Shown one piece after another: positions 10,610-13,438 of a stretch of 64,000 nt of DNA (within the stretch, counting starts at the first letter, position 1; each line of letters begins with the position of its first letter). The notes under the pieces are model-generated. The model was not told the origin of the DNA. It ran no database searches and saw only the letters and a list, made by a program, of their open reading frames with translations. The position numbers and the translations under genes were made by a program. Source of the stretch: an uncultured Dehalococcoidales bacterium (GTDB lineage Bacteria > Chloroflexota > Dehalococcoidia > GIF9 > UBA5629). The DNA is taken from NCBI GenBank assembly GCA_964519615.1, contig CAZFIM010000001.1, positions 37,065 through 101,064 of the forward strand, in the 5' to 3' direction.

Positions 10610-12391
10610 TTACTGCGTGTAGGTCACGGTCAACTGCGGCAGACCCGTAAGTAGCCAGATGATACTATCGGCCTGTCCGTCACCATTGGTCGCTGTCTCG
10701 TTATAATGAATCCGCATCTGGAAGCGTGAATGCCCTACTCTGGCCTGCAGCTCATTCTTCACATCGTTGTCTGCAGCCGGCGGCGTCAGTTCCGCTTCAG
10801 CGCAGTAGCGCAGCACCGCTCCCAACGCCGACGCGCTGAAATAGTCGCCGGCATCCAGCATAACATAATCGTCTACATACGCCCTCAGACAACCCAGGTC
10901 GCTGAAAGGGTCTCCGAAGACTATATGCTGGCCGTCGAAATCCACTACCACTTCCTCAATGGTAGCTCCTGCCGGTATAGCGGATATATTGAAGCTAACA
11001 AAAGCCTGGTACGATTTATCGCCCGCGTCGTCCCCTGCTATCATGACGCCGTTGAAAACCGTACCGTCATCGGCCACATAGCCGCCTTCTGTTGAAACGG
11101 CTGGGACCACTATGGTTGTGGAGGCAGCAGCCGGCGGCTGTACAGAAAAGCTTTGGGACTGCGACCACTGGCTCCATAATCCGGCGTTGTTCTGCGCTCT
11201 AACCTTCCATGTCCAGCCCTGACAATTGGCCGGTGGAATGGATCCGCCGCTGGTCTCGGAGTAGCCTGAGCCGGATACCAGCTCATCGATCGCCGCGTTG
11301 GGCATTGTGTCCAGTTTGACGTAAATCTGGTACTGCTTGATACCGCTCTCAGAATCTACGGCGTCAGCCCAGTCAAAGCTCCACGGACTGGTAGGCTGCG
11401 GCAGCGTAGCATTTTGTGCGGGAGAAAGCAGTACCGGGACGCTGGGCGGCGTGTTGTCAGGTGCGCCCGCGGCCACCGCAACCATCACAGACTGGCTGGT
11501 CCAGCCGCTGGCATTGGCGGCTTTGAGAGTATAGGCAGTCATAGCGGGAGGTGTTATCTGCTGCGAGCCTGCGGCCGCCACGGAGCCGATACCATGATCG
11601 ATAACAACAGATGTTGCGCCGGTGACCTTCCAGCTCAATACAGAAGGCTCTCCGGCAATCACGGTCAGCGGATTTGCCTTGAAATAGTGAATAACAGGCT
11701 GGCCCTGGTTCTGAGGAGCAGAGCCGACATACAGAACGGTATTGGCGGTTACCGTATCATTGCCTTTAATTGCTGTCAGCGTATAAGCGGTGGTTGATGC
11801 AGGCGAAACTGTTTTACTGCCTTCTGCAGGAACATCGCCGATACCGCCGTTAATGGCAACTCCGGCAGCGCCGTTAACTTTCCAGACCAGTGTTGCGCTA
11901 TCGCCCGGCTGGATAACAGTCGGATTGACCTGAAAGGTTGCTATGACCGAAGATGTAGTATCCTGCTGTGGTATGTCAATTCCAACTTTAACACGCTCCG
12001 TTACCTCTTCAGACCAGGCATTACTGCTGTCCTTCACTTTGAAGTAGATAATATGCGCCCCTTCCGAGAGAGAAGACGTTCTGAAGTTTGCCTGGTCGCT
12101 CAAACAACCGTCCAGATCAGAGCGCCAGCTGTAATCAGTAATATAGCCGTCAGGATCGATGCCTCGTCCTTTGAAGGTGATTTCACCGCCTGTCGCTACG
12201 GTACGGGGAAGAATAGAACTGATGTTTGCACGGGGAGCCTGGTTATAGCTATCTGCGGTAACCATAACACATGCTGCCGCTGCTGCGGGCAGCAGTACGG
12301 CAAGTATAATAAGCAGCATGAGCAGTTTACTCGTTTTACTTTTCTTAATTGATTCCATCGGGATGCCCTCCTTTTTGAAATATGTTTTCAC
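10610..12391 (-). CDS. secreted/cell-surface protein with signal-anchor and tandem Ig-like (PKD/FN3-like) repeats
   Basis: N-terminal TM or signal peptide. Two ~75-aa repeats (FQVNPTVIQPGDSATLVWKV.. / FKANPLTVIAGEPSVLSWKV..) plus further beta-rich modules. Confidence 0.6.
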   Translation of the reverse strand: MKTYFKKEGIPMESIKKSKTSKLLMLLIILAVLLPAAAAACVMVTADSYNQAPRANISSILPRTVATGGEITFKGRGIDPDGYITDYSWRSDLDGCLSDQANFRTSSLSEGAHIIYFKVKDSSNAWSEEVTERVKVGIDIPQQDTTSSVIATFQVNPTVIQPGDSATLVWKVNGAAGVAINGGIGDVPAEGSKTVSPASTTAYTLTAIKGNDTVTANTVLYVGSAPQNQGQPVIHYFKANPLTVIAGEPSVLSWKVTGATSVVIDHGIGSVAAAGSQQITPPAMTAYTLKAANASGWTSQSVMVAVAAGAPDNTPPSVPVLLSPAQNATLPQPTSPWSFDWADAVDSESGIKQYQIYVKLDTMPNAAIDELVSGSGYSETSGGSIPPANCQGWTWKVRAQNNAGLWSQWSQSQSFSVQPPAAASTTIVVPAVSTEGGYVADDGTVFNGVMIAGDDAGDKSYQAFVSFNISAIPAGATIEEVVVDFDGQHIVFGDPFSDLGCLRAYVDDYVMLDAGDYFSASALGAVLRYCAEAELTPPAADNDVKNELQARVGHSRFQMRIHYNETATNGDGQADSIIWLLTGLPQLTVTYTQ

Positions 12392-12520
12392 AGCTTAAAC
12401 CGTTTAAGTGGTTTTCAAGCACTCACATGTTCAGTCTACATTCAAGCAGCAGTGCCTGCATGATAAATGCCTGATAAGAAACCAACATTTTGCTGACATT
12501 TCGGGCAGTCGCAGGCGTGT

Positions 12521-12549
12521 TTGACAAGAGTGGCATGACGTGTTTAAAT
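12521..12549 (+). promoter_or_regulatory. sigma70-like promoter TTGACA-N17-TTAAAT
   Basis: TTGACA at 12521-12526, 17-nt spacer, TTAAAT at 12544-12549. There is no coding gene directly downstream on this strand. Confidence 0.4.
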
Positions 12550-12556
12550 GAAATCA

Positions 12557-12809
12557 GGAGCCGGGTGGCGTAAATGAAGATGTGGAGGTGAAGCATGAGG
12601 CTTCATGTATTGTACGGAGTATGGCAGGTTGATGAATGATGCCCTGTCTTGCGACAGGGCGAGAAGGACCTCGGGTCCGGTTTGTAAGTGAAAGTAAGGA
12701 CGGCCGGTAGATAAAAGAGGCCGTATACGGTAGTAAGTACCGCACAGGAGCCGGGCTTGCGAGTAGCGTGTAATGAAGGGGTGCTTTTTAAAGTGCCCCT
12801 TTTTCTTTC
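12557..12809 (+). ncRNA. candidate ~250 nt structured small RNA or cis-leader of unknown class
   Basis: Purine-rich. No stop codons in any minus frame (three overlapping spurious minus ORFs). No plus ORF longer than 25 aa. Multiple perfect hairpins (e.g. GCCCTGTC-ttgc-GACAGGGC at 12648-12667). Flanked by the promoter above and an intrinsic terminator. Confidence 0.35.
12777..12809 (+). terminator. rho-independent terminator
   Basis: AGGGGTGC-tttttaaa-GTGCCCCT followed by TTTTCTTTC. Confidence 0.5.
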
Positions 12810-12916
12810 GCTGCACATCTCTGCCTTTTTATACCTGCTGCGATATCCTTGTCCCTGCGGCCGGGATACACTATACTGTGAGAAACAACCGGAGGAAAGG
12901 TGTCCTTTCGTATAAC

Positions 12917-13438
12917 ATGGGTACACATGGGGTACTTTCAAGAGAAGATATCCTCAAGCTGATGAGTGCCACCCCGCCTCTGGTGGAGCATTTGCCTGAT
13001 AGCGAAAGGCAGATTCAGCCCAACGGCATCGATATGACGCTTCGTGATATTGCCATGTTTGAGAGTGCCGGTACGCTCCATCCTGATAACAGCGGCAGGA
13101 TACTATCCGGCACCGCACCGCTGATATTCGACGGGCTGGGCAGCATTATGCTCATACCCGGCTGTTACCTGGTCACCTGCAACGAGATTGTCAACCTGCC
13201 TAAAAACATCATGGCTCTGGCACGCCCGCGCTCGAGCCTTCTGCGCTGCGGCGTGACGGTGCAGAATGCCGTCTGGGATGCCGGATATTGCGGCAGATCA
13301 CAAGCGCTGATGGTGGTCTATAATCCGCTGGGATTCCGTATTTACAGGAACTCGGGCATTATACAGATGGTCTTTTTCCATTTAAGCAGCGAGGCCGCAG
13401 AGGGTTACAACGGCATCTATCAGAATAAAACCTTTTAA
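12917..13438 (+). CDS. dcd: dCTP deaminase/dUTPase-family protein
   Basis: RSSLLRCGVTV..WDAGYCGRSQALM matches the Dcd/dUTPase beta-barrel signature. ATG at 12917 (MGTHGV..). Confidence 0.75.
   Translation: MGTHGVLSREDILKLMSATPPLVEHLPDSERQIQPNGIDMTLRDIAMFESAGTLHPDNSGRILSGTAPLIFDGLGSIMLIPGCYLVTCNEIVNLPKNIMALARPRSSLLRCGVTVQNAVWDAGYCGRSQALMVVYNPLGFRIYRNSGIIQMVFFHLSSEAAEGYNGIYQNKTF

Follow-up and report, generated by a model that had tools for sequence, protein, structure and literature searches.

Arrest peptides and dual-function small RNAs (sRNAs) are each known from a handful of cases in model organisms, and we know of almost none that has been found by comparative genomics in uncultivated lineages. 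Their products include peTrpL, a leader peptide of 14 amino acids (aa). The rnTrpL/peTrpL system is reported to join an attenuator-derived sRNA with a leader peptide (PMC7968998). In Escherichia coli, the 14-residue arrest peptide PepNL holds peptidyl-tRNA-Asp in the P site of the ribosome at a UGA stop codon, a precedent from which we take it that so short a peptide is able to cause arrest alone (PMC11890864). Transcriptome sequencing (RNA-seq) of Dehalococcoides mccartyi CBDB1 has in turn revealed three abundant intergenic sRNAs without an Rfam match, of which sRNA1 is 6S-like and sRNA2 and sRNA3 are unassigned (PMC12961961). Here, we describe an element in a 64,000-nucleotide (nt) stretch of DNA from an uncultured Dehalococcoidales bacterium (GenBank assembly GCA_964519615.1, contig CAZFIM010000001.1, positions 37,065 to 101,064), which we refer to as the window. 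The element lies on the plus strand upstream of dcd, the dCTP deaminase gene, and combines a mini open reading frame (mini-ORF) for a near-invariant heptapeptide, a codon-locked hairpin and a covarying RNA domain. It fits two known kinds, the arrest-peptide leaders and the dual-function sRNAs, and matches no catalogued family. We tentatively favor a reading in which the nascent peptide arrests the ribosome against the hairpin.

A conserved 14-codon mini-ORF

The original prediction for this segment was a purely non-coding sRNA with only tiny plus-strand ORFs. One of those ORFs, however, is conserved, has its own Shine-Dalgarno (SD) sequence and varies at synonymous sites among homologs, so the transcript is not a purely non-coding sRNA. 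Conservation was followed in an alignment of 14 distinct lineages (A7) that extends from the predicted 5' end to the terminator. The features concerned are the following.

12584-12590, plus strand: SD sequence GGAGGTG of the mini-ORF, with GGAGG invariant in A7.
12595-12639, plus strand: mini-ORF of 14 codons plus TGA, encoding MRLHVLYGVWQVDE, with YGVWQVD invariant and synonymous third-position changes.

The start context is GGAGGTG-N4-ATG, which places the GGAGG core 6 bases before the ATG, and both the SD and the ATG are invariant in A7. Among homologs, codon 4 is CAT, CAC or CAA, and codon 6 is TTG, CTG, ATT, ATA, ATC or ATG, always encoding Leu, Ile or Met.

Homologs were collected from metagenomes with the longest invariant stretch, the 19-mer ACGGAGTATGGCAGGTTGA, a scan that returned 18 loci. 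Because such a DNA scan forces identity, a peptide profile search of a protein collection served as an unbiased check. It recovered 43 predicted "proteins" of 29 to 72 aa, nearly all with YGVWQVD at or near the N terminus; the exceptions are a few that end in VE, VQ or VT and one with Phe instead of Tyr. The frames of these ORFs stay open beyond the core, which is why gene callers retained them. Whereas the window encodes the heptapeptide as TAC GGA GTA TGG CAG GTT GAT, the homologs found by peptide use TAT GGA GTG TGG CAG GTG GAT or TAC GGA GTT TGG CAA GTG GAC, and further ones use TAC GGG GTG TGG CAG GTT GAC or TAC GGA GTA TGG CAA GTA GAC. The codons differ and the amino acids are kept; what is conserved is therefore the peptide, not a nucleotide string.

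An exhaustive hidden Markov model search of 1.84 billion representatives found the motif in 65 called ORFs. Across relatives, the peptide core reads [LF]-[HQN]-x-[LIMV]-[YFL]-G-V-W-Q-V-D, and distant matches with unrelated flanks keep L-(H/Q/N)-x-(L/K/W)-YGVWQVD, their Leu being encoded by CTT, TTG, CTG or TTA. In the retrieved sequences, nearly every substitution within the core is conservative, Tyr being replaced by Phe or Leu, Val9 by Ile and Val12 by Thr. Among the few exceptions are Trp to Arg (P0191), Gly-Val to Arg-Arg (P0202) and Asp to Glu, Gln or Thr. Between 5 and 12 residues precede the Tyr, making the N-terminal length variable and the conserved block C-proximal. The heptapeptide core is essentially invariant even where identity in the surrounding RNA is down to about 60%. 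Judged by these substitution patterns, the mini-ORF is evidently translated and under very strong protein-level selection.

The peptide has no match in Pfam, NCBIfam or the PDB chains at E-values up to 10, and its motif was not found in the searchable full-text literature. Gene callers miss the 14-aa ORF and call spurious read-through ORFs of 29 to 72 aa across the RNA instead.

A hairpin at a set distance from the Asp codon

Immediately downstream of the mini-ORF lies the first hairpin of the element.

12641-12660, plus strand: P2 hairpin, GCCCTGTC-TTGC-GACAGGGC, 12641-12648 pairing with 12653-12660; 98% paired, 4 of 8 pairs with compensatory changes.

In the window, P2 begins 7 nt past the Asp codon. 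The equivalent GC hairpin begins 7 to 8 nt past that codon in 21 of 23 loci, whatever the position of the stop codon, which itself falls anywhere from 1 to 52 codons after Asp (one codon after it in most stand-alone copies). The residues after Asp are set solely by the sequence of the RNA hairpin. In many lineages the open frame crosses the covarying helices P2 and P3 or is fused in frame to a downstream signal-peptide protein, as in P0171 and P0200.

Since reading on would unfold conserved RNA or add N-terminal extensions to secretory proteins, translation would normally end at about Val12-Asp13, and we infer that ribosomes usually stop at about Asp13. By the geometry of the ribosome footprint and helicase, a stem that starts 7 to 8 nt past Asp abuts the mRNA entrance when codon 12 or 13 occupies the P or A site. 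Given the variable location of the stop codon, arrest or abortion of elongation is likelier than arrest at termination. Programmed frameshifting at the hairpin was considered and rejected: the sequence lacks a slippery heptamer, and its -1 frame meets UGA inside GUUGA.

A covarying fold with a three-way junction

We assessed the RNA fold with RNAalifold and explicit pair counting on A7. The plus-strand fold has an energy of -89.5 kcal/mol (z = -3.35 versus shuffled sequence). Six helices with 50 pairs emerge, in which 94% of cells are paired, as against 32 to 48% when the partners are slid by 1 to 3 columns. Compensatory (double) changes occur at 28 of the 50 pairs, compared with 5 to 9 in the slid controls, and none of 500 shuffles reached the observed value. 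The plus strand is fixed by the promoter, the T tract and the ORF, together with the abundance of G-U pairs. Besides P2 and the terminator, the helices are as follows.

12557-12562, plus strand: P0 5' strand, GGAGCC, at the extreme 5' end of the transcript; pairs with 12599-12604.
12599-12604, plus strand: P0 3' strand, GGCTTC, within mini-ORF codons 2 to 4.
12669-12683, plus strand: P3 5' strand, pairing with 12748-12763; compensatory changes in 10 of 14 pairs.
12748-12763, plus strand: P3 3' strand, GAGCCGGGCTTGCGAG, including the second CAGGAGCCGGG copy.
12700-12724, plus strand: P4 hairpin, ACGGCC...GGCCGT with a variable loop, 12700-12705 pairing with 12719-12724; 4 of 4 scored pairs with compensatory changes.
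12726-12744, plus strand: P5 hairpin, TACGGTA-GTAAG-TACCGCA, 12726-12732 pairing with 12738-12744; 91% paired, 2 compensatory pairs.

Of these, P3, P4 and P5 together form what is, by covariation, a three-way-junction RNA, which the terminator follows to complete the 3' module. P3 is 90.8% paired across homologs. In P4, a single pair position is GC, CG, AU or UA in different lineages (L017 has a loop insertion), and close relatives already show the hairpin changing from ACGGCC/GGCCGU to GCAGCC/GGCUGC and GCGGUC/GACCGC. Most lineages have GTGAA, GTGAT or GTAAG as the P5 loop, but L049/L056 and L059 have AAGGT or ATGAT. Both the GCCCTGTC/GACAGGGC hairpin (P2) and the CGGTA/TACCG hairpin (within P5) had been picked out from the sequence alone, and both prove real and covary.

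At the 5' end, P0 is 98.8% paired in the 14 lineages. The only changes preserve pairing and fall on its 5' strand, where G becomes A across from U and C becomes U across from G. Codon 3 (Leu3) is CTT in 14 of 14 A7 rows and in L027 as well, while other codons drift synonymously, which argues that an RNA constraint is laid over the coding constraint at P0.

Two other features proposed from the window alone stood only in part. The sequence CAGGAGCCGGG does occur twice (12555-12565 and 12745-12755), but the copies play different roles, the first as the 5' strand of P0 and the second in the 3' strand of P3, and the second is not conserved in L015 or L017. The local hairpin GGACC-TCG-GGTCC (12666-12680, A7 columns 130-142) is likewise present, but its 3' half falls within the 5' strand of the much better supported P3, and it is 77% paired, with weak covariation (at one pair, GC in 9, AU in 3 and GU in 2 sequences). 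In competition with P3, this hairpin may form as an alternative fold or during transcription. As for the many GGA or AGGA motifs said to sit in predicted loops, the six GGA triplets of the transcript fall in P0, the SD, Gly codon 8, J2/3, the J3/4-P4 junction and P3; none is in a hairpin loop, and the loops of P2, P4, P5 and the terminator lack GGA.

Three further pairings were tried and rejected. An outer helix between ORF codons 10 to 12 and the pre-terminator segment was predicted from four close sequences and was not recovered with the 14 lineages. An antiterminator pairing the 5' arm of P2 with the 5' arm of the terminator amounts to 4 to 5 bp by eye, shows no covariation and is at odds with L024, where P2 is altered and the terminator is not. 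A pairing of CCGAAUC in the 5' untranslated region (UTR) with GAUUCGG at P5 is complementary in L028, L036 and L046 and not in L020, L047 or the window. An all-versus-all single-column covariation scan for extra helices or pseudoknots returned phylogenetic noise alone with 14 sequences.

A predicted promoter-to-terminator unit

The element occupies an intergenic region (12392-12916) between the gene of a 584-aa signal-peptide protein, which is divergent (10610-12364, minus strand) and has no Pfam match, and dcd (12917-13438, plus strand), whose product matches PF22769. Its boundaries are set by the following features.

12521-12526, plus strand: -35 hexamer TTGACA, read from the sequence; perfect in 14 of 15 homologs of the stand-alone type (type A, below).
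12541-12549, plus strand: extended -10, TG-T-TTAAAT, with TG at 12541-12542 and TTAAAT at 12544-12549, after a 17-nt spacer from the -35.
12556-12809, plus strand: predicted transcript of about 254 nt, its 5' end taken from the promoter and its 3' end from the terminator.
12776-12809, plus strand: intrinsic terminator, its stem formed by 12776-12785 and 12792-12801 and followed by a T tract; compensatory changes across lineages in 8 of 11 pairs.

The near-consensus sigma-70 promoter of the original prediction, TTGACA-N17-TTAAAT, is indeed present, with an extended -10. A consensus promoter scan omits this -10 site in the window, since TTAAAT has T rather than A at hexamer position 2; we take the promoter as real despite that omission because it is conserved in homologs. 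In 14 of the 15 type-A homologs, the perfect TTGACA stands 91 to 102 nt upstream of the Tyr codon, and about 17 nt later come -10 sequences that include TGn plus TTAAAT, TTAACT, TATTAT, TAGCAT and others. Transcription would start at about 12556. The canonical terminator described ahead of dcd was found independently by a terminator scan (12775-12802 plus the T tract), ends about 105 nt before dcd, and is kept with covariation in all homologs.

The segment is purine rich, as first described (59% purine, with 89 G versus 42 C and a GC skew of +0.37). The accompanying claim that no minus frame contains a stop is nearly right, the actual counts across 12556-12809 being 1, 1 and 0, and we ascribe the near-absence of minus-strand stops to base composition. 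Three overlapping minus-strand ORFs of 63 to 112 aa (12544-12941) are artefacts of this kind, plus-strand purine richness leaving 2 stops per 254 nt over three minus frames.

From its sequence and that of its homologs, the element appears to be a self-contained promoter-to-terminator unit with a strong promoter of the sigma-70 type and a predicted transcript of about 250 nt. The proposal of such a unit with its own promoter, terminator and structure thus holds across lineages, with covariation in support, and we regard the descriptive anatomy of the element as secure.

About 65 bp upstream of the -35 (12456-12520) are as well conserved as the RNA in L015, L017 and L018. This sequence runs TGCCTG...CCTGATAARAAACCAACATYTTGCTGA...CAGTCGCAGRCGTG and holds GCCTGC/GCAGGC inverted repeats, with repeated TTATCAG-like words on the minus strand. 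Its role may be that of an operator, or else of the promoter from which the divergent gene for the 584-aa protein is transcribed.

Stand-alone and putative leader forms across lineages

The element is conserved in Dehalococcoidia-like bacteria. Homologs are present in at least 14 divergent metagenomic lineages, and a covariance model built from close relatives (R1) recognizes 10 of the 18 loci at full length with 62 to 97 bits. Four closer dcd relatives exist in the protein collection, and the three syntenic contigs among them (L015/L016, L017 and L018) keep the whole segment.

The genes next to the complete unit differ by lineage: an M50 peptidase gene with tyrA and aroA, a DUF1648 gene with a class II tRNA synthetase gene, and elsewhere Yip1, PspC, a cyclase with rpe, PAC2 or a tRNA. 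In at least five loci a convergent gene comes next, and a function shared by downstream genes was sought across the homolog loci without any being found. Because its neighbors are unrelated and the next gene is often convergent, we consider this form stand-alone (type A).

A second form (type B) consists of the mini-ORF and hairpin only and lies directly upstream of an SD and a gene whose product has no assigned function and, where inspected, a signal-peptide-like N terminus. It is seen in L045 (4001-5129), L058 (2207-3125), L033 (~266-923) and L025, and less clearly in L022 and L032; in-frame fusions of mini-ORF and downstream gene are the P0171 and P0200 sequences mentioned above. The downstream proteins have no homology to each other or to the 584-aa protein of the window, and one matches DUF6345.

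Several side observations concern individual loci. The shortest stand-alone homolog, L027 (~1380-1420), lacks P4 and P5, and about 100 nt later an apparent tRNA 3' half (GGTCGCAGGTTCGAATCCCGCCGCTGCTAC) follows, of which Rfam at the threshold used reports none. Archaeal-type Pfam domains (CetZ_C tubulin, PAC2 and MJ1433) are encoded on the homolog contigs L046 (2465-3649), L049 (4442-5326) and L056 (7778-8144); the RNA units beside them have bacterial-type TTGACA promoters, SDs and intrinsic terminators. The element was not found in the plasmid, phage and viral collections searched. The exact 19-mer has no match in viral contigs, and a codon-degenerate pattern gave seven matches there, all of which we dismiss as chance occurrences lacking an SD, an ATG or a hairpin.

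A ribosome-arrest model and its alternatives

The element has what the arrest class has: a C-proximal motif selected at the amino acid level, a variable N terminus, and a hairpin where a paused ribosome would melt or abut it. It also has what marks dual-function sRNAs, namely a predicted independent transcript, a conserved promoter and terminator, and an ORF with a coding signature. The reading that we favor, at a confidence just short of calling it probable, is that the nascent peptide of a stand-alone transcript stalls its ribosome at the hairpin, and that this arrest gates the 3' three-way-junction RNA.

In such a mechanism, the nascent peptide in the exit tunnel and the P2 roadblock at the mRNA entrance would together arrest or abort translation at about Val12-Asp13. 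The whole chain of 13 to 14 residues would lie inside the tunnel, and contact with so universally conserved a partner could account for how extremely conserved the peptide is. The ribosome parked there would prevent P2 from forming, and P0 would close again behind it. Whether a ribosome occupies the mini-ORF would then determine how the 3' RNA domain folds, how stable it is or how efficiently its terminator works, and this domain would be the output of the type-A version; in type B, the paused ribosome itself would act as a cis leader for the signal-peptide protein genes.

To a more far-reaching version we give somewhat less credence. Here, LHxLYGVWQVD would be a new arrest or abort peptide with a hairpin 7 to 8 nt downstream, fused to a three-way junction of about 130 nt in Dehalococcoidia-like bacteria. 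This would constitute a stand-alone, ribosome-gated riboregulator, in which a ribosome stalled in response to a metabolite, an antibiotic or a translation factor controls a trans-acting RNA, and the same sensor would be reused as a cis leader before secreted-protein genes. If arrest does occur, the element would add a new sequence to those that interact with the tunnel and would also represent a new design, in which a ribosome gates a stand-alone RNA that has no downstream gene.

Several points weigh against arrest. It is read from evolutionary patterns, and invariance of the heptapeptide is compatible, too, with a free micropeptide whose binding partner is conserved. The stand-alone form has no regulated downstream gene that would define the output of arrest. 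No similarity to known arrest peptides was found in Pfam, NCBIfam or PDB, homology to SecM, TnaC, MifM, VemP, the Erm leaders, SpeFL and PepNL being absent at E up to 10. On the RNA side, P0 has no double-sided compensatory change, neither a covariation-supported antiterminator nor any other pairing that links P2 to the terminator was found, and type-B leaders folded with and without a stalled-ribosome footprint show no clear SD-unmasking switch.

The main alternative is a small mRNA or dual-function sRNA from which a 14-aa micropeptide is released, the structured 3' part being independent of it, either as a stabilizing 3' UTR or as a trans-acting sRNA that pairs with RNA or binds protein, as in SgrS/SgrT, SR1/SR1P and Spot 42/SpfP. 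The protein-level selection on the ORF, the covarying RNA domain within an independent unit, the paired 5' end and 3' terminator hairpin (as in stable sRNAs) and the stop one codon after Asp in most stand-alone copies all suit this explanation. Yet the stop position is not conserved across the 1 to 52 codons that follow Asp, the residues there are dictated by the hairpin, and the N-terminal length varies. In-frame fusions to secreted proteins are hard to square with a defined free peptide, and the fixed distance between Asp and hairpin would have no role. We therefore judge a released micropeptide to be somewhat unlikely.

That the RNA is purely non-coding and structured, with the ATG, SD and open frame incidental and the conserved stretch an RNA motif, we consider improbable. 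The strong covariation in six helices accords with it, as do the constraint that P0 places on codons 2 and 3 and the identity of the 19-mer in 16 of the 18 recovered loci (the other two are likely chance), in a search that demanded the exact sequence. Against this, the homologs found by peptide vary at third positions and keep the amino acids; codons 4 and 6, and Leu3 in distant relatives, change synonymously or conservatively; and the SD and ATG do not vary.

Relation to dcd

Another explanation holds that a cis leader, either a leader-peptide attenuator or a riboswitch, controls terminator read-through into dcd (12917-13438), and we rate it, if anything, as a shade more improbable than a purely non-coding RNA. 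The terminator does precede dcd by about 105 nt, both being on one strand, and the order of leader ORF, structure and terminator resembles an attenuator. The idea that the element attenuates dcd nevertheless fails on distribution, since the two do not co-occur across relatives. Among 14 Dehalococcoidia and Chloroflexota dcd loci (L001-L014; 47 to 68% identity), nhmmer, blastn and a covariance model detected no element, including upstream of the best genome dcd matches, which are about 64 to 68% identical. The dcd of L019 is 87% identical to that of the window, and unrelated AT-rich sequence stands in place of the element (L019 1-223), which implies that close relatives differ by a gain or loss of the element. 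Most homologs lie away from dcd and adjoin unrelated genes, often a convergent one, and runs of regulatory codons are absent from the mini-ORF.

Between the terminator and dcd, moreover, lies a promoter-like sequence, TTGTCC-N17-TATACT (12849-12877), suggestive of a separate promoter for dcd. L015 and L017 share its -10 region (CTATACTGTGA), which in L019 is only weakly recognizable.

The annotation of dcd is affected in its own right, as gene callers over-extend the gene into the terminator. Its longest ORF, of 221 aa, starts at an ATG at 12773, inside the RNA terminator, and ends at 13438. P0167, a 221-aa NCBI entry from a 185,749-bp contig in the same 90%-identity cluster as P0004, agrees with that call by length alone. 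The 173-aa relatives P0001 and P0002 and the Pfam match both point instead to the ATG at 12917 as the true start.

Known RNA families

The original prediction saw no resemblance to RNase P, SRP, tmRNA or common riboswitches, and this assessment was borne out. The 4227 models of Rfam 15 gave no match on the whole window at gathering thresholds, a permissive scan of 12350-12950 gave terminator-like chance matches alone (E > 0.4), and Rfam found nothing consistent on ten homolog loci. With ARAGORN, neither a tRNA nor a tmRNA was detected in the window.

A CsrA/RsmA-sequestering decoy of the CsrB/RsmZ type, a likeness prompted by the purine-rich transcript and its six GGA triplets, is scarcely credible, given that no GGA lies in a hairpin loop, that there is no repeated GGA stem-loop array and that the Rfam Csr/Rsm families give no match at E up to 10.

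Three other classes were rejected. The consensus fold is multi-branched rather than the single long rod-like hairpin of 6S RNA, and there is no Rfam 6S match. A type I toxin mRNA does not fit a peptide of 14 aa that is charged and aromatic and not membrane-spanning. An amino-acid attenuator does not fit an ORF with one Trp, one His, one Tyr and no codon runs, followed by genes that are unrelated or convergent.

Comparison with known systems

The element and the D. mccartyi CBDB1 sRNA2 and sRNA3 (PMC12961961) belong to one bacterial class. Those two sRNAs are abundant monocistronic intergenic transcripts that have sigma-70-type promoters and match nothing in Rfam. Its identity with either is a lead only, the comparison being one of descriptions; sRNA1, being 6S-like, is unlike the element.

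The trpL, hisL and pheL attenuators have the same order of SD, short ORF, hairpins and intrinsic terminator. They differ in that the mini-ORF has no tandem regulatory codons and the peptide sequence itself is conserved. Here, about 100 nt of independently folding RNA separate the ORF from the terminator, and there is no conserved downstream operon.

PepNL, TnaC and ErmCL/ErmBL are arrest peptides that, like the one predicted here, are encoded by a very short ORF, so that the whole peptide lies in the exit tunnel. They likewise have a C-proximal conserved block, a variable N terminus and conservation at the amino acid level, with RNA structure within reach of the paused ribosome. PepNL also has 14 residues and stalls with tRNA-Asp in the P site, although it has no sequence relation to the mini-ORF peptide. 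In contrast to these leaders, arrest in the present case is predicted, and the mini-ORF is followed by a three-way-junction RNA and a terminator rather than by a regulated gene.

The dual-function sRNAs SgrS/SgrT, RNAIII/Hld, SR1/SR1P, Spot 42/SpfP and rnTrpL/peTrpL are also small transcripts that carry both a short ORF and a structured RNA. The element departs from them in that its ORF length is not conserved, its hairpin is locked to a codon, and its peptide is far more conserved than the RNA that surrounds it.

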